NCBI GenBank assembly: GCA_049512075.1
Contig: JBEKXL010000005.1
Location: 32,001-96,000, forward strand
DNA: 64,000 bases
Direction: 5' to 3'
Origin: Candidatus Bathyarchaeia archaeon
GTDB lineage: Archaea > Thermoproteota > Bathyarchaeia > Bathyarchaeales > Bathycorpusculaceae
Shown here: in pieces, positions 10,538-57,136 of the stretch
Numbering within the stretch: position 1 is the stretch's first letter
Layout of the letters: each line of letters opens with the position of its first letter
The notes under the pieces: generated by a model
What the model was told of the DNA's origin: nothing
Databases searched by the model: none
Seen by the model: only the letters and a program-made list of their open reading frames with translations
Made by a program: the position numbers and the translations under genes

Positions 10538-11456
10538 AGACAAGATAGACGCCCGCGAAGATCAGGAAGGCTCCTGCGACAGTGAACAGCGTGATTTCCT
10601 TGCCCTCGCCAACGAAAATTGTTGCGAAAAGCACGGTTATCAGCGGCTCTCCGAACATGAACGAGCTGGTCACTGAAGCTTTAACTTGGTTCATCACACG
10701 GAACCATATGAAATACCCCAGAATAGAGCAGACGAAAGCTAAGTAAAGAATTGCTGACCACTCGTTGATGCTCATGGCAAAGGCTTCGTGAAGAGAGTTT
10801 TCTGCCAGAGAGAAGGGAACCAGACAAAGTCCTCCCAGTATGTTAACATAAGCCACGACGAGAAATGGATCATACTTTTCCATGATTCTCTTCCCCATCA
10901 AGCTATAGGCGGCCCACATGAGTGGCGTGAAAAGCAAGATTGAGCTTCCAAGCAGGAAGTTGCCGCTGCTTCCCTGCATGCTCAAAGCGCCGCCTGTGAT
11001 CACAGCAAAGGTTCCTACCGCGGCAATTCCTATGCCAAGGACATTTTTCCCCATCAACTGTTCTTTGAACATTCGAGCTGAAAAAACGCTGATGAGAATC
11101 GGTGAGAGAAGACAAACCAAAATCGCTGCGATTGAAGCGCTGGCCATCTGTATTCCCGTGTATTGTGCGGCGAAGAAGAATGTAACACCCGTTAAGGCGA
11201 GGAACAAGAATTTCAGAAAATCTCTTCCTTCAATAAGAACCGTGTAATCACGGTTTCTGCTCTTGTTTAGAACAAGAGCTACGATGAAGATCCCCCCAGC
11301 AATGAGAAACCTGAAGGTAGCTATGGCGATAGGGGTCAACCCTTCCCCAAGTGTGGCTTTCACAACTACGAACGAGCTGCCCCAAAATGTGATCAGACAC
11401 AGCATCAGAACAGTGTTAAGAGGACTGATCGTTCTGGTTGCCATGCAATCTAGCAT
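10527..11456 (-). CDS. DMT/EamA family transporter
   Basis: FWGSSFVVVK, about 10 TM segments, EPL motif. Confidence 0.9.
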   Translation of the reverse strand: MLDCMATRTISPLNTVLMLCLITFWGSSFVVVKATLGEGLTPIAIATFRFLIAGGIFIVALVLNKSRNRDYTVLIEGRDFLKFLFLALTGVTFFFAAQYTGIQMASASIAAILVCLLSPILISVFSARMFKEQLMGKNVLGIGIAAVGTFAVITGGALSMQGSSGNFLLGSSILLFTPLMWAAYSLMGKRIMEKYDPFLVVAYVNILGGLCLVPFSLAENSLHEAFAMSINEWSAILYLAFVCSILGYFIWFRVMNQVKASVTSSFMFGEPLITVLFATIFVGEGKEITLFTVAGAFLIFAGVYLVSRR

Positions 11457-31309: not shown

Positions 31310-32383
31310 TTACCAAGGATTGCTCATGAGTCTTCCAATAATGTCTTTGTGAACTCTGCCAGCCTTGTGCATCCTTCCTGTCCTAGTGTCGCTTATAGCG
31401 AACTCTCCAATTATGAAACCAAGTCCTTCTTTGGCGAGCTTGTGCAAATCCAACGTCGGATCGATGTACTTCTTTTCTTCCACTGCCATGTGATAGAATG
31501 ATGTGCCGAAGGTGTTCGGATAGTTCTCTATTACTGATTCCTTAACCATCGTCCCGAAATCCTCTCCTTCTTCTGAACGAACCCAACAGTGAACTGTACC
31601 GCCATATCTGATCATGTCATCGGGCCAGCTGCAAGGTTGCTGCAGAGCTTTCGGCGAAACCGGCGAAATCGGTGTGGTTCCCATAACGTTCTCTATGCGA
31701 CGATAAGGAATCTTGTAATATTCAGTGAGTCGCCAGAACATGTCTTCCACACCCCGCGAGGAGGTTTGAGTGGTTCCCGTTATGCTGTCTGTGGGAATGA
31801 CAACCAAGTATAGATTTTTCGGGTCGATTCTGCACCTCTTTGCGATGATTTTTGAGAATTCTTCATCTGGAAGACCGTCCATGCGTGAACGTGTTTGGAC
31901 CAAGAGGACCGCGTTGTCAGGGTGAGGATCTTCGTAGGGCCATTTCTCAAATATCTTGGCTGGTTCTTGAGCTATAGCCTTCGCCGGTCCTGATATCCAG
32001 GCTGTGAACTTTTTGGTTCCAACGTGCGGTGGCGGGATCACCCCGACCCACACGTACATGGAAAGGGCTATGAAGGGTGGAAAATCTGTGTAGTGGATGA
32101 GAACAGGTAGAGTCAGGTCATCGTACGTGACAGCGGTCACTTGCGCTTCTCCGAACCCCCCGAAGGCGATTTTTGTGGTCAGCTCTCCGGCTTTGTAGCC
32201 TCCAGACACGTTTACGCCGCAGTCCAGTATTGTTGTTCCGTTCTTTAGTTCCTCTACAGCGACGTTCAATCTATCGCTGTTCTTGATCATTTCCTTCACG
32301 ATATCAAGTGAGCGTTGATTTATGCTCACTTTTTCCCAGCGTTTCAGCATCTTTTCCATGAAGCTCATTTTCCAAATCTCCAT
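31310..32383 (-). CDS. Mch-like paralog 3, divergent
   Basis: SINQ, ILDCGVNVSGG, TDFP, ISGPAKAIA, SITGTTQTSSRGVE, YGG. Confidence 0.82.
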   Translation of the reverse strand: MEIWKMSFMEKMLKRWEKVSINQRSLDIVKEMIKNSDRLNVAVEELKNGTTILDCGVNVSGGYKAGELTTKIAFGGFGEAQVTAVTYDDLTLPVLIHYTDFPPFIALSMYVWVGVIPPPHVGTKKFTAWISGPAKAIAQEPAKIFEKWPYEDPHPDNAVLLVQTRSRMDGLPDEEFSKIIAKRCRIDPKNLYLVVIPTDSITGTTQTSSRGVEDMFWRLTEYYKIPYRRIENVMGTTPISPVSPKALQQPCSWPDDMIRYGGTVHCWVRSEEGEDFGTMVKESVIENYPNTFGTSFYHMAVEEKKYIDPTLDLHKLAKEGLGFIIGEFAISDTRTGRMHKAGRVHKDIIGRLMSNPW

Positions 32384-50217: not shown

Positions 50218-51579
50218 ATGACTGTAGATCTTTTGCTGAAGGGAGGAAAAATAGCGACATCGACTGGCGTCACCGAGGCTGACATAGCGGTGGACCAGGG
50301 AAAGATTGTTGCCATCTCGAAAGAAACCAATCTGCCCAAGGCTGACAAGGTGCTGAATGTGGGCGGGCTTTTCGTGCTGCCCGGAATTATTGACGCCCAT
50401 GTGCACGTGTGCGATCCAGGGTTCATCCGTGAAAGCTTCAGGACAGGCACGGCGGCTGCGGCTGCGGGCGGAGTGACAACCATAATCGACATGGCCTCCT
50501 CCGCGCAGCTTCGCACTTCCTCGGTGGCAATGTTGAACAGGAAAAAGGAGATGGCTCAAAAGGAATCTTTCGTGGACTTCGGCCTGTACGGAGGGGAAAT
50601 CGCTGATGAGAAGGACTTGGTGGAAATAGGAGACTTGGTTAGGGCAGGTGTGGTCGGTTTCGGCGAAATAATGATGTGCGGCGACATGCCTGTCAAGAAC
50701 GACGAGATACTGTTTGAGGCTTTCAGGTTGATTTCAAAGGCGAAGTCAGTAGCGGCTGTGCATGCTGAGGACAACTCCGTGCTGACCGATATGAAGGAGC
50801 GGATGGTGTCTAAGGGAAGGAAAGACGTGATGGCGTTTGCCGACTCGCGGCCCAGCGAGGCGGAGGCGCAGGCCATAGCCAAGGCCTTGATCTTGTCTAG
50901 GAAGGTGAATGTGAGTCTTCATGTGTGTCACTTGTCAACAAGGGAAGGCGTGAGCTTGATTCAGGCAGCAAAGGCCCGAGGCTTGCACGTCACGACGGAA
51001 GTTTGTCCGCATCATCTGTTTTTCACGAGAGACTCGTACAGTGAACTGGGCCCCTGCATCGTTACTACTCCACCTCTACGGACAAAATATGACGCACATG
51101 CGCTTTGGAACGGTCTGTATGATGGAACCGTAGACTTAGTTGTGTCTGATCATTGTGCCTTTAAGAAGAAAGAAAAGGACGTGGGTTTGCAAGACGTTTG
51201 GAAAACTCCGCCAGGGGTACCCGGACTCGAAACGCTTGCTCTAGTGATGCTGGGAAAGGGAGTTAAAGAGGGAAAGATTTCGCTTGAAAGATTCGTCAAG
51301 GCTTCCTCTGAAAACCCGGCTAAACTCTTCGGGCTGTATCCGAAGAAGGGCGTTTTGCAGCAGGGCGCTGACGCAGACATCGTGGTTTTTGACTTTCACA
51401 AGCAGCACAGGATCAAGGCTGAGGATATGAAGTGCGTCGCCGACTACACGCCCTACGAAGGGTGGGTGGTGGCTGCAGAGCATGCTGTGACGTTGGTTCG
51501 GGGACGAATCGTCGCGAAAGAGGGCGAGGTTGTGGGAAAAATGGGGTATGGCGCTTTCGTGAAGCCTTCATTAAGGTGA
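50218..51579 (+). CDS. Cyclic amidohydrolase (hydantoinase/allantoinase/dihydroorotase family)
   Basis: PGIIDAHVH, AAAGGVTTIIDM, HAED, HLS, EVCPHHL, PPLR, SDH, GADAD. Confidence 0.9.
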   Translation: MTVDLLLKGGKIATSTGVTEADIAVDQGKIVAISKETNLPKADKVLNVGGLFVLPGIIDAHVHVCDPGFIRESFRTGTAAAAAGGVTTIIDMASSAQLRTSSVAMLNRKKEMAQKESFVDFGLYGGEIADEKDLVEIGDLVRAGVVGFGEIMMCGDMPVKNDEILFEAFRLISKAKSVAAVHAEDNSVLTDMKERMVSKGRKDVMAFADSRPSEAEAQAIAKALILSRKVNVSLHVCHLSTREGVSLIQAAKARGLHVTTEVCPHHLFFTRDSYSELGPCIVTTPPLRTKYDAHALWNGLYDGTVDLVVSDHCAFKKKEKDVGLQDVWKTPPGVPGLETLALVMLGKGVKEGKISLERFVKASSENPAKLFGLYPKKGVLQQGADADIVVFDFHKQHRIKAEDMKCVADYTPYEGWVVAAEHAVTLVRGRIVAKEGEVVGKMGYGAFVKPSLR

Positions 51580-51733
51580 AAAAGAACATCACAGGTGAAG
51601 AATTTACAGCTGTCTGTCGAAGACCATGGCGGGCGCAAAACCCAGCAAGCCATTCTTGTCAGGTTTTCTGGACGTAACCTACCCCGGTCTACTATGATAC
51701 AAATATGACTTCAAGAAAAGTGTGCGCAGTAGG

Positions 51734-51808
51734 TGGGCCGGACCGGACTTGAACCGGCGACCTTTGGCTCGTAAAGCCAATGTCCTAACCAAGCTAGACG
51801 ACCGGCCC
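51734..51808 (-). tRNA. tRNA-Val(TAC), intronless, CCA not fully encoded
   Basis: GGGCCGG TC GTCTAGCTTGGTTAGGAC A TTGGC TT TAC GA GCCAA AGGTC GCCGG TTCAAGT CCGGT CCGGCCC A folds as a cloverleaf. Confidence 0.96.
51767..51808 (-). repeat. att site within the intact tRNA
   Basis: Matches 55349-55390 at 41/42 positions. Confidence 0.92.
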
Positions 51809-52092
51809 ACATTTTTAGATTCTAAGCCTAAATCATTGAGTTTATGTTCAATGGTATTTTCGGTTCTACATTGAACACTTGAACACTGGCCGTTGTTGCT
51901 AGTGCCCAAGTTTTCATTAGGCCCAAGTTCCTTTGGTATCCTCTCTACATAATCTTTACTCTGTTGATGATAGAAGAACTCTGATTTTTTAGTGACAGGA
52001 TTCAGTCCTTTATAGTGCCTTATCCGATAGTAGTTTTTGCCTACCTTCTGTAAGAATCCCTCAATTCCACATTGTTCACATTTCAATCTCAC
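51767..52092 (-). pseudogene. int(N): N-terminal fragment of the split integrase (ORF continues through the tRNA to 51679)
   Basis: MRLKCEQCG...ESKNV-GRSSSLVRTLALRA; same att-encoded peptide as int(C); GGAGGTG SD before GTG. Confidence 0.8.
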
Positions 52093-52295
52093 TATTTCAC
52101 CTCCTTAGTTTCCATTATGCACTCAGCCTGAGAGCTTTTCAAGGATATAATGACCATTGAGAAGTTTTCAGGGTTCGTTAATAGGATGTAAAAGGTACAC
52201 ATTGTAGGATACATCTTAAACTGCAGTATAGCCTTAGTCTTCAGGACAGTATTAAATCCTATAGAGACAGAAGACAAAAGATCCATGACACTATC

Positions 52296-53096
52296 GGTTC
52301 TGTTAACTTTTCGAGACTTGAGTGATGGAAGATCTTCCTGAATTACTAGCACAACTCAAAATGGAAAAATAAAGACTCCTACACTATTTCGCATCTGCCA
52401 GATATTTCAGGTGAAATGGTTTTCTAATACTTGTTGGGTTAATGTTTGCGATGAAGCTTTGACTATCAATCAATAAGTTTGAAAACTCACTGTTGTGCTC
52501 TCTCATGAACTCTACATAGTCTGAATAGCTCTTGTGGAATGAAACAAAGATGCCATCCCATCCCATTCCTTGTCCTTCTATGGCTAAGATAACATTCGGT
52601 TGTTTCATCATCCACTCTTTCACTCTCTTGAAAGCTGCTTCGCTCACTTCAGGTTTGGTATACTTAATATTGTGTTTTACAAAGCTGAACACAACAAGTT
52701 CAAAACCAATTTTCTCCCATTTCGGTATCGCCGTATACCCATCAATAAAGCTCTTTTCAAGATTGACCCTTTTCCTGCTGACAGTGGGCTGAGAAATTCC
52801 GAGAACCTTAGCCAATTCTCTGTCACTCCTGCGGCTATTCTTCATCAGTTCACACAGAAGTTTGTTATCGATAGTTTTCATTTTATCCATGGCACATCAT
52901 TAATTAGTCCTTTTTACAATTCTTAAGACTTTTGGAAGACTCTTCGATTGAAATCCTGAAATTGGTTCTGTTGACTCTTGCCTTTCTTATATTATGTCAT
53001 TTCAAGCTGTATTAGTAATTTAAGAAAATCGGTTCTCCCTCTTTGGTTAACGTAGGCATATCTTTATCCATGCAAGCCCTAAGAGTTAACAGAACC
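52296..53096. mobile_element. Non-autonomous IS6-like element carrying an Lrp/AsnC gene
   Basis: 16-bp TIRs: GGTTCTGTTAACTTTT (52296-52311) and the reverse complement of GGTTCTGTTAACTCTT (53081-53096). Third copy at 52964-52979. Flanks ACACTATC / ACATTATC (7/8). Confidence 0.6.
52384..52890 (-). CDS. Lrp/AsnC family transcriptional regulator
   Basis: NSRRSDRELAKVLGISQPTVSR HTH, GYTAIP.WEKIG. Confidence 0.9.
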   Translation of the reverse strand: MDKMKTIDNKLLCELMKNSRRSDRELAKVLGISQPTVSRKRVNLEKSFIDGYTAIPKWEKIGFELVVFSFVKHNIKYTKPEVSEAAFKRVKEWMMKQPNVILAIEGQGMGWDGIFVSFHKSYSDYVEFMREHNSEFSNLLIDSQSFIANINPTSIRKPFHLKYLADAK

Positions 53097-53134
53097 ACAT
53101 TATCTTATCTTCAACATAACATTATCTTATCTTC
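53097..53134. repeat. 16-bp direct repeat ACATTATCTTATCTTC x2
   Basis: Copies at 53097-53112 and 53119-53134. Confidence 0.8.
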
Positions 53135-53178
53135 TATCTTTCTTTCTGCTACATCAGATCCTTGAGATCAATGCTAAG

Positions 53179-53601
53179 ATGGATGTGGTCAATGTTAAGT
53201 CTCCAAAGCATCTTGAACTGAAACCATTTATCATAGAGAAAAAAGACGGAAGCAAAATCGGTTTTGTATCCCATTTCTACGTCCTACATCCTGCAGCTAG
53301 GCAACTGGAAATAGGCTATATTTTGGTGCCGAGTGAGAGGGGGAAAGGCTACTGCACAGAAGCCGTCAACATTATGGTGGACTACTTGTTTCTTTCAAAT
53401 AATATAGAGCGTATTCAAGCCCAGACTGATGTGAGAAATGTGGGTTCACAGAAGGTTCTGGAAAAAGCAGGTTTCAAGAAGGAAGGAACAATTCGCAAAC
53501 TCTTTTTCCTCAGAGGACAACTCAGAGACGCTTGTTTGTATAGCATTCTCAGAGAAGAATGGAAGGAACCAAAAATACTAACAAGAACCGAGAAGAAGTA
53601 G
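53179..53601 (+). pseudogene. RimJ/RimL-type GNAT acetyltransferase, probably 5'-truncated
   Basis: EIGY..ERGKGYCTEA, NVGSQKVLEKAGFKKEG; lacks the usual N-terminal strand/helix. Confidence 0.7.
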
Positions 53602-53751
53602 AAAGATTCTGTCTGTTATTAACATATAAACTATTGAATAAGGCTGTTCGGAGATCATAATGTCAATTCCTCATAATTCTCAGATCCCCAGTTGCTCTTC
53701 CAAAAGCTAGAGGCTCCATAGAAGTTCAGAGCCTAAGCATTTAATCTTCTT

Positions 53752-53895
53752 TTAGTATCTTGTTCTCTCTTTTTTGGAGGGTTTCTTTCCTTTTCTTCCA
53801 CTCCACTGGTATCCACATACTTCACACTTCTTGGAACCAGCTTGAACTATTATTTTCTTACTTCCACATTGGGAACATCGTTCTTTTCGAGCCAT
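53752..53895 (-). CDS. 47-aa basic Zn-ribbon microprotein
   Basis: MARKERCSQCGSKKIIVQAGSKKCEVCGYQWSGRKGKKPSKKERTRY; below the ORF-track cutoff; purine-rich SD-like GGATGAAG upstream. Confidence 0.75.
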   Translation of the reverse strand: MARKERCSQCGSKKIIVQAGSKKCEVCGYQWSGRKGKKPSKKERTRY

Positions 53896-53969
53896 CTACT
53901 TCATCCACTAGGCATGTTTCATTTATCCAGTAATGCTTATGCTTCTAGATAGTTATTTCTATTGATCAA

Positions 53970-54006
53970 GATTTCAGGGACTCCCTAGAAGTTTTTCATC
54001 GAAGTT
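53970..54006. repeat. 37-bp direct repeat, copy 1
   Basis: GATTTCAGGGACTCCCTAGAAGTTTTTCATCGAAGTT. Confidence 0.9.
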
Positions 54007-54064
54007 TCAACTGTTCTACAGACAAAGAAAAGAGGGAACTAGTGATGTGCGAAAATGCTGGGTC

Positions 54065-54331
54065 TTAGGTAACCAGAACACTTTGTATCAGTGATGAAGA
54101 ATCAAATTCCTCAATCAGCTTCAACCCTTCATCTGTGGTTTGGTATATGTTGCCCTTTTCTTCAATAAAACCATGGGCTTTCAGAAACTCGATATACCTG
54201 GTGAATTGTCCGTAACTTAGAGAAACCGAACTAAGCAAGTGTATTTGCCTGATGCCCTTCTTTGCAGCTTTCAGAATGGCTACAGAAATGATCAAAGAAC
54301 TTCTCCTTTTCGACGGGAAAGTCAGGTCCAT
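54065..54331 (-). CDS. Small winged-helix protein (ArnR1-like wHTH)
   Basis: KRRSSLII..ILKAA, LSY..F.RYI.FL..GFI, YQTT..GLKL; GGGGAG SD before ATG 54331. Confidence 0.82.
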   Translation of the reverse strand: MDLTFPSKRRSSLIISVAILKAAKKGIRQIHLLSSVSLSYGQFTRYIEFLKAHGFIEEKGNIYQTTDEGLKLIEEFDSSSLIQSVLVT

Positions 54332-54356
54332 AACACTCTCCCCCACTGTATAGAAC

Positions 54357-54372
54357 TATCTTCTAGAAGATA
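54357..54372. promoter_or_regulatory. Perfect 16-bp palindrome TATCTTCTAGAAGATA, candidate operator
   Basis: About 25 bp upstream of the wHTH start codon. Confidence 0.45.
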
Positions 54373-54399
54373 AACATACCTTATGAGCGGGAAAAGGAG

Positions 54400-54436
54400 G
54401 ATTTCAGAGACTCCCTAGAAGTTTTTCATCGAAGTT
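54400..54436. repeat. 37-bp direct repeat, copy 2
   Basis: GATTTCAGAGACTCCCTAGAAGTTTTTCATCGAAGTT (36/37 to copy 1). Confidence 0.9.
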
Positions 54437-54480
54437 CTAAGGGCTATATGAAAAGAAAGTGGAATGTCGAACTGTTTCGA

Positions 54481-55390
54481 TTAGGTAGTTTTGTTGAATG
54501 TTTGTTCTAGCTCTGACAATGCCTTTAGTGTTCTGTCTCTTAACTCTGACAGCTTTAGGAGTCCAATAATGTTTCACAAAGATGCTTGGTGGTATTCTGC
54601 CTTGTAAGAGGTTAATCTCTTGTTCCAATATTCCATGTCTCAGTAGATAGGTACCGAAGAAATCTCTTAATTCGTTTATCCTGCATCTCTGTTTGTTTCT
54701 CAATAATCTTTTCCTAATCATCTCATAGGTTATGGGCTCGCTGTTAGCTATCTCACCTGTGCCATGTTTTCTGTTATGAATGTGATGAAGCAATTCTTAG
54801 TTTTTCGTATGAAGTCTTTGGGATATTTGAAGTGCCATAAACAGTTAAGGCTAGAATCATAGTATTCTGATAATCTATGGTTTTTGGCTAATTCGATGAT
54901 CCTGTTGAAAGACTTGATGGCCTCATTTTTTCTGAGTCCAGAAAACAGCAGATACTTCAGGAAAGTCCTTTCGTTATTTCTGAGTAGATCTTGAACTTCA
55001 GCATACCATTTTAGGATATCTAAGTCATTTCCGTTCATTATTCTTAAGAAGGCATTGAAAGTACTTGGACTCGATAGTTTAATACCGTGATTCTTCAGCT
55101 TAGATGCAAAGTTATCATAGACTCCTAGATATTTGCTGAGAATTGTTAGAGACTTGACGCAGTTGTTTTTGATGGATTGAGGCAATAAGTCTAGGTCCCT
55201 AAGGTTATCAGAGAATACAAATCTGTAGTATCTCTTGACATAACACATTATTGTATGATGGTAGGATTCTGCATACTTGCCCTTGACCCAGTGGTCAAAT
55301 TCATCTAGATTTAATGTTGTTTCATGGTTTGGGTCAATGTTAGAACATGCTCGTAAAGCCAATGTCCTCACCAAGCTAGACGACCGGCCC
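54481..55390 (-). pseudogene. int(C): catalytic part of an SSV-type tyrosine integrase with two frameshifts
   Basis: SGLRKNEA, RKTKNCF, ELRDFF, LLQGRIP, KHYW. Frameshifts near 54760 and 54555; the restored tail reads PKLSELRDRTLKALSELEQ. Confidence 0.85.
55349..55390 (-). repeat. att site: duplicated 5' half of tRNA-Val
   Basis: GGGCCGGTCGTCTAGCTTGGTGAGGACATTGGCTTTACGAGC, then diverges from the tRNA. Confidence 0.92.
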
Positions 55391-55422
55391 TTTTGCACTA
55401 TCCTAACACTCATCAAGCCATT

Positions 55423-56415
55423 TTACTTTTCTGTCCTCGTCAGCTCAGCAGCAACTCTTCCAATGATGCCGACGGGGTCTTCCAGACGAGCAAGCTTGGA
55501 TTTCACGTCAAACCGTTTGCCAAGATACTTCTTCGAATACCTCAATGCTTCGCGTGTATTTGTTATAAACAAGGGAAACCCGAGCTTTGCGAGATACTTG
55601 TTAACATAGGTGCGTCCTATTTCAGAGACTACTATGCTGGGCACACCCTGCAATGCAGCCTCTCTAGATATTGTTCCGCCTACACTAACAACCAAGTCCG
55701 CATGCGCAACAACACTGGCCGAATCCACAAAATCTGACTCGGTAGCTGCGCCTTCCTTTTCAGTCCTCTCATATCGAGAGATGAAAAGAACGTTTCCCAG
55801 TGAACCCAGTTTCTCGGTGAGCTCCACTGTTTCATCACGTTTTCCAAGCGCGTACGCGGCTCTGGTCTCCATCTGCCTTACCACAATCAGCGGCTTCTCA
55901 AACTCGAACTTTCCAATGGGCTTGAAGTCTTTAATCCATGCGACCTCATCTACTCCTTTGAACTGGACGATGCTCTTTGCCCCGAATCTTCTGAAAAACC
56001 CCTGAGGGATGGCTTCAGAAATAACCAGGGTTTCCGCTAGAGGCACCGTCAACCTGTTCACCGCGTTCGCGTGCGGCGTGTCCGCGGTCAAGATTACTGG
56101 CACACCCAGCCCAAATGCGACACGGCACAGCTCGACAGACTGGTGCGATATGGCCACGTCGGGCAAGCGATCCTTGAACAATTCTGCGAGCTGAACCATT
56201 CGCTTAGCGCTTTCCTCTAACCTGGAAAAAAGTGATGTGGGGGAGTACTTTCCGACGACAACGGGGTTTTCACCTAGCACTCGGGCCAAAAACAAGGTGT
56301 CAGGATGCTCCCTAGTCGTAAAAATAACTTCGTGTCCCGCTTTCCTTAACTGCTTAGCTATGGCGGCGCCGTACCTGACGTGTTTGCCCGTACAGGCATC
56401 GTACCACACCCTCAT
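55423..56415 (-). CDS. DUF354-family protein (GT-B-like)
   Basis: MRVWYD..KHV, DTPHA, FKGVDEVAW, GGTISREAALQGVP. Confidence 0.8.
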   Translation of the reverse strand: MRVWYDACTGKHVRYGAAIAKQLRKAGHEVIFTTREHPDTLFLARVLGENPVVVGKYSPTSLFSRLEESAKRMVQLAELFKDRLPDVAISHQSVELCRVAFGLGVPVILTADTPHANAVNRLTVPLAETLVISEAIPQGFFRRFGAKSIVQFKGVDEVAWIKDFKPIGKFEFEKPLIVVRQMETRAAYALGKRDETVELTEKLGSLGNVLFISRYERTEKEGAATESDFVDSASVVAHADLVVSVGGTISREAALQGVPSIVVSEIGRTYVNKYLAKLGFPLFITNTREALRYSKKYLGKRFDVKSKLARLEDPVGIIGRVAAELTRTEK

Positions 56416-56932: not shown

Positions 56933-57136
56933 TTTCCCGCTTCTACGATTTTACAAGTGCCAAGTTTAAATAGTTTGGTAGTTCGATGCCAGCGCGCGCG
57001 CTTTCGCATCTGGGGGTCAGGAGCTCGCCCATTCTTCATCGTTGAACACTCCATTATAATCATGAATTCAATTCGTTTATTAAGAGTGCTTGCCCACCCT
57101 GCCGATTTGTATCAGTGCGTGCTAGTCTATGCGAGG

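Follow-up and report, generated by a model that had tools for sequence, protein, structure and literature searches.

In the window analysed here, a stretch of 64,000 nucleotides (nt) from contig JBEKXL010000005.1 of a Candidatus Bathyarchaeia archaeon (positions 32,001 to 96,000, forward strand), a motif of about 40 nt, named motif A, lies in direct copies beside a split tyrosine integrase gene of the Sulfolobus spindle-shaped virus (SSV) type. Motif A is specific to one family of Bathyarchaeia, where it punctuates arrays of accessory-gene modules. The evidence supports a boundary element in a system of modular islands that have been reshuffled, and does not demonstrate capture by an integrase. 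The reading that we prefer, at a probability of roughly 45%, is that modules are exchanged at the boundaries marked by motif A, which also serves as a 3'-end hairpin. Copies of the motif form a family, they keep a single orientation within each array, the same units occur with different neighbours, and the arrays are anchored beside int(C), the catalytic part of the split integrase gene, or beside rpl12.

The two full copies of the window (53970-54006 and 54400-54436; D3 in a repeat search) are 37 nt long, agree at 36 of 37 positions (97%) and are spaced by 430 bp, exactly as an earlier reading of the window (the sequence-only reading) had described them. With up to three mismatches allowed, the 37-mer had two matches in the window and none in each of 100 shuffles, and in the whole 2.73-Mb genome these two sites were the only ones to match. 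Both copies are flanked by reversed genes. The winged helix-turn-helix (wHTH) gene that had been placed between them was confirmed by its PF14947 match (E 2.1e-14), and for the zinc-ribbon microgene next to it the open reading frame (ORF) of 47 amino acids (aa) is present, but the zinc-ribbon matches are sub-threshold only. The end of int(C) had to be moved: the stop codon had been placed at 54481, and the frame ends at a TAG at 54437-54439, abutting the repeat.

A third, partial copy (53703-53726) is weak when taken alone, with an nhmmer E-value of 0.067; its 13-mer, with up to two mismatches, gave four matches, a number reached by 8 of 100 shuffles. We regard it as genuine because its orthologue in a locus of another genus (L126) is a complete 24-nt motif copy before the same zinc-ribbon unit, which there is 93% identical in nucleotides over 204 nt and begins inside the motif. 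The sequence-only reading had already seen this copy and had explained it by decay with distance from the integrase; the copy is real, but it is a distinct 'half' form that recurs in other genomes. Read from int(C), the decayed array in the window comprises two and a half units: int(C), A, wHTH, A, zinc ribbon and A', where A' denotes the half copy.

Motif A has a 24-nt consensus, GATTTCAGGGAGTCCCTAGAAGTT, which in about two thirds of the copies continues with TTTCATCGWAGTTCTA (full copies); the second of the two tandem 13-nt units noted earlier belongs to this TTTCATCGWAGTTCTA part. The remaining half copies continue with unit-specific sequence. The TTTCA and TAGAAGTT flanks are nearly invariant, and the centre is variable. 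An exact 26-mer, scanned in one genome per species, was present in one other genome, G401 (locus L073), which has at least ten motif copies in three arrays; the same 26-mer had no match in a viral collection. The 24-nt pattern GATTTCAGRGNNTCCCTAGAAGTT, with up to three mismatches, matched 96 times within the same family, in 27 of the 332 genomes searched; the reversed pattern, used as a control, matched 10 times. These matches come mainly from a few genera, and many of them cluster on one strand. Outside the family, a class-wide sample of 401 genomes gave no motif arrays; what appeared there were single matches with two or three mismatches, in 16 genomes, against two control matches. The motif is thus neither a one-off nor a genome-wide promoter motif, being confined to islands and to same-strand arrays that bound variable units, and the idea of a cassette array survives for that reason. 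A literature search, with subscription journals and supplementary files outside it, found no paper with the motif strings or with such arrays.

This distribution also bears on the proposal that the repeats are a one-off local duplication or a hairpin like the repetitive extragenic palindromic (REP) elements, spread by a Y1 transposase of the REP-associated tyrosine transposase (RAYT) or IS200 type. The near identity of the two window copies would suit a duplication, and an imperfect palindrome at gene ends, with GTAG in the common CGTAGTT variant, would suit a REP-like origin; however, the motif is found in 27 genomes, with at most 12 copies per genome, all confined to islands, where REP elements would be expected as many dispersed copies together with their transposase. 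We consider this explanation very improbable. A RAYT/IS200 origin was set aside as a candidate: PF01797 was not found in three of the five motif-bearing genomes searched (G598, G599 and G401), two of which carry 9-12 copies.

To describe the arrays we used a profile search over 22 fetched loci and the window (E ≤ 1), which gave 75 copies in 23 loci. Within any one locus all copies share a strand, and 52 units of 70-2711 bp lie between consecutive copies. Sorted by the orientation of their ORFs, 27 of the units are co-oriented only, 12 reversed only and 9 mixed, and 4 have none; the 12 units with only reversed genes are still flanked by motifs in the array orientation. Many units hold two to five genes. 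The cargo includes GNAT acetyltransferases (16 of the 23 loci), Lrp-like regulators (11) and wHTH genes (5), as well as DUF4760 genes in tandem, transmembrane (TM)-anchored secreted proteins (CBM96/DNRLRE and NosD-like), a methyltransferase and a ZIP transporter. Nothing decisive came from scanning the cargo genes with PADLOC and PHROGs, and a PEF-CTERM signal, a tentative label for the TM-anchored proteins, was not detected by NCBIfam.

The same units occur in different surroundings. The 430-bp wHTH unit is kept from motif to motif in L119 (84% identity) and in L113 and L132 (74-75%), and two arrays of G401 have in common a 1043-bp unit that is closed by a motif copy at each end and whose flanks are unrelated. 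Of the window's own genes, the wHTH, the zinc-ribbon and the Lrp-like gene are each found at other loci as units between motif copies, and in a different order. For the TM-anchored secreted proteins (NosD-like, CBM96/DNRLRE), the final residues (..KISGSP or ..KISEGS) and the stop codon are encoded by the motif's first 19 nt, as seen at L082 16187-16238, L080 10070-10121, L079 13070-13121, L130 9574-9625 and others. Since the motif start encodes protein ends in some units, the same motif DNA is coding in these and non-coding in others.

Two kinds of anchor were observed. An SSV-type int(C) is present in 10 of the 23 array loci, and in nine of these ten a full motif copy lies convergent to it, within about 170 nt of its end. 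The integrases beside arrays are 26-45% identical to that of the window and are broken by a split or a frameshift, and their tRNA targets differ (Val, Thr, Ala); several of these int(C) genes have their own T-run before the motif. Of two sister elements, L124 is about 80% identical in nucleotides over the stretch of motif and int(C) and 89% over the flank of int(N), the N-terminal integrase part, and L137 (86% aa) shares the integrase and the motif; in both, unrelated cargo follows, and the homology to the window ends exactly at 54400, the motif edge. A third relative, L134, is 96% identical and has the same array as the window. In the other 13 of the 23 loci an SSV-type integrase is absent from the fetched stretch. 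Conversely, integrase relatives at 82% (L135, L136) and 60% (L053) identity have no motif, and no motif was found at E ≤ 0.1 in 20 genome loci (L053-L072) and 15 metagenome loci (L135, L136, L138-L152) of integrase relatives; above that threshold the only matches were in L138 (E 0.95) and L146 (E 0.44).

The second anchor is rpl12. Arrays L113 and L128, from two genera, lie between rpl10 and rpl12; one of these intervals spans 16.4 kb with at least eight motifs and the other 1.7 kb with one motif, and the copy nearest rpl12 is conserved in both. The interval between these ribosomal stalk genes, rpl10 (P0) and rpl12 (P1), is a hypervariable island (L113 9203-9711 with L114; L128 8665-11704). 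A tRNA was found in neither stretch, and no integrase was found in L113 or L128 or, as far as a tblastn screen alone covers it, in L114. Arrays thus occur away from tRNA genes also. The suggestion that the motif delimits variable single-gene units beside this integrase family finds support in the variable units and in the int(C) neighbour (9 of 10), but not in the gene number of the units, often more than one, or in the 13 loci with no such integrase in the fetched stretch.

We then compared where homology between loci stops. The endpoints of high-scoring segment pairs (HSPs) fall within 10 nt of a motif in 14.2% of cases, against 3.1% for random positions. Of the 104 endpoints of the 26 HSPs with 80% identity or more, 28 coincide with a motif or fall no further than 10 nt from one; several of these HSPs start at motif position 0-2 or end at 21-27, so that the borders of units come to lie within the 24-nt part or at its margin. 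L134 is a near-identical allele that lacks 53078-53702 (625 bp) and carries a GCGCGCT filler in its place. The breakpoint is the start of the half copy A' (53703-53726), where a tract of 94% identity, running to 57003, also ends; the rest is 99.9% identical. A contig of one public run carries the same allele as L134. The difference between L134 and the window is a recombination tract that ends at the motif, not a motif-by-motif event.

An alternating (GC)4 sequence was seen at several junctions of recombination or insertion. It forms the filler of the 625-bp indel (L134 9650-9656) and marks the end of the 94%-identity tract (window 56992-57000); it also occurs as an 8-nt insertion inside int(C), at window position 54772, in another population (run X6), about 25 nt after the rpl10 stop at an island edge (L128 ~10815-10822), and at both ends of the G401 element (L079 8415 and 18269). 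In the genome, GCGCGCGC was counted 646 times and CGCGCGCG 353 times, where base composition predicts about 28 occurrences, and no other 8-mer of that composition exceeds 44.

Folding of the motif strand gives a hairpin with about 13 pairs, AAGAUUUCAGGG-AGU-CCCU(A)GAAGUUU, and a U-rich sequence after it. The dyad of TTTCAGGGA/TCCCTAGAA, which the sequence-only reading had called weak, is stronger than described, and T5 comes after it. Free energies of -10.7 to -12.5 kcal/mol were obtained for the hairpin, with modest z-scores. Across 69 copies, 85% of cells are paired, and sliding the register lowers this share to 67% or less. The conservation of two G-U pairs favours the motif strand as the one that folds. 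For 32 of the 75 copies, the end of a co-oriented ORF falls in the range of -18 to +26 nt from the motif start, and in 10 of those 32 the stop codon is the TAG inside the motif. Full copies have T5, and half copies have no T-run. Co-oriented genes have no other T-run, and reversed genes have their own CCCTCTTTTTT-type terminators.

These properties would be expected if motif A were purely an RNA 3'-end element (a terminator, an insulator or an mRNA stabiliser) and the mosaic of units came from ordinary divergence, duplication and deletion. The hairpin with its T5, the strand-specific fold implied by the conserved G-U pairs, the position of the 32 copies at co-oriented stops and the division of terminators between the two gene orientations all agree with it, as does the rate of HSP endpoints at motifs, which equals that at ordinary stop codons. 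However, for 21 of the 75 copies no co-oriented ORF ends in the 400 nt upstream, the full copies of the window stand among reversed genes, and the half copies would act without a T-run. It is also the sequence of the stem flanks, not only their structure, that is nearly invariant across genera, and the motif remains about 85-95% identical beside integrases that have diverged to 26-45% aa identity. A simple scan for bacterial-type terminators did not flag the full copies; the only hairpin reported was at A', on the minus strand. A role in transcript ends and nothing else seems unlikely to us. The alternative given in the sequence-only reading, a terminator or regulator-binding motif, nevertheless keeps some probability through the hairpin with T5 and the 32 copies near co-oriented stops.

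According to the module-boundary reading, each module would end with the 24-nt part GATTTCAGGGAGTCCCTAGAAGTT, mostly followed by TTTCATCGWAGTTCTA, and modules would be lost, gained and re-ordered by recombination within the shared motif. In the transcript, the hairpin and T5 may give co-oriented modules a defined 3' end. The prime suspect for the enzyme would be the adjacent integrase while intact, or an integrase acting in trans, and recombination at short homology would be the alternative.

Several observations weigh against this reading. Per site, HSP endpoints number 1.91 at motifs and 2.15 at non-motif ORF stops, so that motifs show no enrichment over stop codons. The units are often multi-gene and drawn from few families, mainly GNAT and DUF4760, unlike the diverse cassettes of integrons. 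The 625-bp indel has only one end at a motif, and no two of the alleles compared differ cleanly by the gain or loss of sequence from motif to motif. In contigs of four public runs, aligned to 51500-55600, no trustworthy excision joint, circle or empty site was found; all 24 public runs with matching sequence are assembled contigs, and no RNA run is listed among them. In orthologous comparisons, divergence of the motif roughly keeps pace with that of its flanks (for example, 37 of 44 positions are the same where the whole unit is 84% identical), and covariation in the hairpin is modest, with 18 both-side changes against 10.9 ± 2.8 in shuffles (5 of 500 reach 18). Contig joints from 53998 or 54006 to 54400 were seen; their sides are only about 30 nt, and the joints may simply be the repeat. 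For L118 and L132, orthologous integrase elements of sister genomes, the divergence beyond the integrase is too fast for unit-level indels to be followed.

The sequence-only reading had gone further and proposed that an SSV-type integrase adds one-gene cassettes at these sites. This mechanism is not supported: 13 of the 23 loci have no such integrase in the fetched stretch, close integrase relatives are without the motif, the units are often multi-gene and of few families, breakpoints are not more frequent than at stop codons, and no clean insertion or excision allele was found. A broader version can be formulated, in which motif A is a dedicated site like attC/attI and a tyrosine recombinase inserts and excises modules. 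The enzyme would be a suicidal integrase, intact in the episomal form or supplied in trans, and the copy beside int(C) would be the entry site. The family would then carry a cassette system independent of IntI and attC, where a 24-40-nt hairpin site bounds modules that are mobile by site-specific recombination between elements and chromosomes, and the arrays would have been seeded beside suicidal tyrosine integrases and at fixed sites such as the rpl10-rpl12 spacer. We hold this, in the narrower form and in the wider one alike, to be possible but rather doubtful.

On its side are the direct-orientation arrays anchored at int(C) in nine of the ten integrase loci, the invariant outer arms with a variable centre, which resemble a recombinase core site, and the full and half forms, which fit a crossover after GAAGTT. 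The hairpin site stands at the 3' end of units and overlaps the stop codon in 10 copies, as attC can, and arrays without an integrase would parallel the clusters of attC sites lacking integron-integrases (CALINs) in the available account of archaeal integrons (PMC9668308). There is also a precedent, in that the SSV-family integrase of pTN3 is described as recombining non-att sequences (PMC5495485). However, the array-side integrases target three different tRNAs (Val, Thr, Ala), share 26-45% identity and are split or frameshifted; the closest relatives of the window's integrase (82%, L135/L136; 60%, L053) lack the motif, and the fetched range of the 13 loci contains no such integrase. The motif has no similarity to the attachment (att) site or its tRNA, the contigs of four runs hold no circles or empty sites, and the pTN3 activity, in the part of that report available, needs about 100 bp, against 24-40 nt for the motif (PMC5495485).

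A further proposal is that motif A is an operator for the element-encoded Sso10a-like wHTH or Lrp-like regulator and coordinates or silences the island. The core AGGGA-S-TCCCT is palindromic, CTAGAAG is common to the motif and to the conserved TTCTAGAA palindrome of the wHTH promoter, the TATA-like boxes of the two window genes flanked by the motif are 25-45 nt downstream of it, and wHTH units are always motif-flanked. We nevertheless judge this role improbable: a wHTH gene is present in only 5 of the 23 array loci and an Lrp-like gene in 11, nine stand-alone wHTH homologues keep the promoter palindrome without motif A, and elsewhere the motif is usually at gene 3' ends. The wHTH gene has a likely control site of its own. 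Its promoter block, TAGRTTTATSTTCTAGAARATRC..TATA, is present exactly or with few substitutions in all 10 loci compared (window L003 and L004-L012) and is most altered in L010-L011. Autoregulation is suggested because the conserved palindrome overlaps the TATA-like box, and the palindrome ATCTTCTAGAAGAT is likely, as a candidate read from the sequence, to be the autoregulatory operator. The stand-alone homologues L004-L012 have no motif A, and a scan of ORFs of 80 aa or more in the surrounding 1.5 kb gave no integrase.

The repeats sit within a decayed integrated element of 3.58 kb at a tRNA-Val gene, a fossil of the suicidal-integrase kind; its features are collected in Table 1. The tRNA-Val(TAC) gene (51732-51808) is intact, and its first 42 nt form one copy of the att direct repeat (51767-51808), which returns at 55349-55390 with 41 of 42 positions identical and a spacing of 3582 bp. 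The ORFs at the two element ends are the int(N) and int(C) halves of one SSV-type integrase, and the att sequence is translated in both fragments (GRSSSLVRTLALRA); the att site lies inside the integrase gene, which defines suicidal integrases in the available text of PMC8371274, and int(N) and int(C) flank the element. The earlier attribution to an SSV-type, non-IntI integrase agrees with this, the gene being split by its own att site and its homologues being of the PF16795 type. The frame of int(N) runs on into the att repeat and the tRNA. At the protein level int(N) is 89% identical to that of the sister element L124, and its homologues in L122 and L131 adjoin tRNA genes. The score of int(C) against PF16795 is 25 bits, under the cut-off of 27 bits because of the frameshift; its homologues pass the cut-off, with L079, L073 and L123 at 40-53 bits. 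An Rfam scan of 51500-55600 (E ≤ 1) returned the tRNA only. Motif A shows no similarity to tRNA-Val or att: the local score of 6 was matched or exceeded by 915 of 1000 shuffles.

Table 1. Features of the integrated element in the window (positions in the window; evidence as obtained in this analysis)
Feature	Position	Strand	Evidence or remark
tRNA-Val(TAC), integration target	51732..51808	-	ARAGORN; Rfam tRNA 64.7 bits
int(N), N-terminal zinc-ribbon part of split SSV-type ('suicidal') integrase	51811..52092	-	frame translation
ORF86, no assigned function	52092..52352	-	no Pfam match; adjoins int(N) in L124 too
Lrp/AsnC-like HTH regulator, 168 aa	52384..52890	-	PF13404, E 5e-8
5'-truncated GNAT acetyltransferase, 140 aa against ~180 aa in relatives	53179..53601	+	PF13302, E 2.5e-19
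Motif B, conserved upstream region of DUF4760 genes in other arrays	53590..53635	+	87-91% identity to L073
Half copy (A') of boundary motif	53703..53726	+	first 6 nt replaced, second 13-nt unit absent; nhmmer, L126 orthologue
Zinc-ribbon microgene, 47 aa	53752..53895	-	sub-threshold zinc-ribbon matches
Full boundary-motif copy	53970..54009	+	24-nt constant part, then TTTCATCGAAGTT
Sso10a-like winged-helix (wHTH) gene	54065..54334	-	PF14947, E 2.1e-14; NF053610
wHTH promoter	54350..54380	-	TATA-like TTTAT overlaps palindrome ATCTTCTAGAAGAT (54358-54371)
Full boundary-motif copy	54400..54439	+	abuts int(C) stop codon, convergent
int(C), catalytic part of split integrase	54437..55347	-	two overlapping frames; frameshift near 54750-54793
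Second att direct-repeat copy, other element end	55349..55390	+	41/42; repeat search

Homologues of int(C) are present in 57 of the 401 genomes of the class sample. PF16795-type suicidal integrase fragments are common in Bathyarchaeia (L053-L072, L133-L152), and many of the elements that carry them are very small, 2.6-6.5 kb, bounded by tRNA-derived repeats of 40-50 nt; their hosts come from peat and sediment metagenomes and are not hyperthermophiles. Two of the integrase relatives have internal repeats of sequence unrelated to motif A, namely a 372-bp tandem duplication adjoining the tRNA end (L059 6948-7469) and a 29-nt repeat whose copies lie 1311 bp apart (L068 3136 and 4447).

On the plus strand the element reads, from int(N) to int(C), ORF86, the Lrp/AsnC-like gene, the truncated GNAT gene, motif B, the zinc-ribbon gene and the Sso10a-like wHTH gene. 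ORF86 has a counterpart in L124 with 72% aa identity over 50 aa. In L119 and L123 the Lrp-like gene forms a unit that runs from motif to motif, in the orientation opposite to that of the window; its nucleotide identity is 88.6% to L119 9305-9863 (inverted) and 87% to L123. The GNAT gene covers only positions 56-138 of the PF13302 profile, is 77% identical in nucleotides to L080 16504-16865, and is a remnant of the commonest array module. Motif B matches L073 5074-5120 and 3877-3910, where the block precedes DUF4760 genes; in the window no DUF4760 gene stands behind it, and it is an orphan promoter remnant. The zinc-ribbon unit recurs in L126 (89% aa, 93% nucleotide identity) and, by tblastn, near L079 (70% aa). 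The wHTH protein scores 55.2 bits against the Sso10a family NF053610, under the 60-bit cut-off; the gene, its own promoter and its own terminator, a C-rich T-run that follows the gene, make up the 430-bp unit. Runs X7 and X10 are other metagenomes, from peat and sediment; in them the summed contig depth reached hundreds to thousands over the Lrp-like gene (52322-52869), motif B (53555-53691) and motif A (53966-54102) and was low over the wHTH and integrase bodies. From these depths, the Lrp-like, motif B and motif A modules appear abundant across many organisms.

If recombination does occur at the motif, an abundant uncultured archaeal class would possess cassette arrays built on a recombinase family different from that of integrons and with a much shorter site, and this would explain the fast-changing sets of surface, membrane and acetyltransferase genes in small suicidal-integrase elements and in a ribosomal-protein cluster. 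Were the more doubtful cassette system real, it would represent a second, archaeal invention of the integron principle. Even if motif A is only a 3'-end hairpin, its 24-nt pattern is a marker of accessory islands in the family with few false matches (96 against 10 in the control), and the strict orientation and the anchor positions offer concrete substrates for testing archaeal integrases and termination.

Several known systems resemble the arrays in part. The REP elements of bacteria, and the bacterial interspersed mosaic elements (BIMEs) with them, are imperfect palindromes of about 35-40 nt at gene 3' ends that could stabilise or terminate transcripts and promote rearrangements. Motif A is likewise an imperfect palindrome at gene 3' ends; unlike REP/BIME sequences, it has at most 12 copies per genome, in accessory islands, with a single orientation per array and with no Y1 transposase in three of the five carriers searched. 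With the SSV-type elements and the gene capture described at archaeal tRNA genes, the element shares an att site inside the integrase gene, integrase halves flanking the 3.58-kb insert and integrase remnants in decay (PMC8371274). It differs from them by its internal repeat arrays bounding cargo, of which the available part of that account makes no mention, and by hosts from peat and sediment metagenomes, whereas the elements described there are from hyperthermophiles (PMC8371274). The pTN3 integrase, an SSV-family enzyme that recombines homologous segments other than att, would offer a possible route for module exchange at short repeats; its reported activity, however, is on segments of at least about 100 bp and in Thermococcus (PMC5495485), and for a 24-40-nt motif or for this integrase clade such activity would be a prediction.

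A further likeness is to integrons, to sedentary chromosomal integrons such as those with the Vibrio cholerae repeats (VCR), and to CALINs. Archaeal integrons have been reported by Ghaly et al. 2022 (PMC9668308), and, according to the available text of that work, the common traits are same-orientation arrays of a hairpin site that bounds variable units, a site at the unit 3' end that can overlap the stop codon, one copy beside a tyrosine recombinase gene and, as in CALINs, some arrays without a recombinase. In contrast to integrons, the recombinase here is a suicidal integrase, of the PF16795 type to judge by its homologues and with its gene split by its own att site, and not a member of the IntI clade, which has PF00589 and an additional domain of its own. 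The site measures 24-40 nt, where attC measures 55-141 nt; a hairpin forms, but the R''-L''/L'-R' box layout is absent, and neither strand of the consensus has a GTTRRRY core. With respect to the integrase gene, the anchor copy is at the 3' end and not upstream. Integron cassettes are mostly single, promoterless and co-oriented; here only 27 of the 52 units are co-oriented, units are often multi-gene, come from few families and have their own promoters, as the wHTH unit has its own promoter and terminator, and their mobility is putative. The system works like an integron or a CALIN and stands outside the integrons by its integrase, its site and its units, and the element that hosts it is a member of the suicidal-integrase class.

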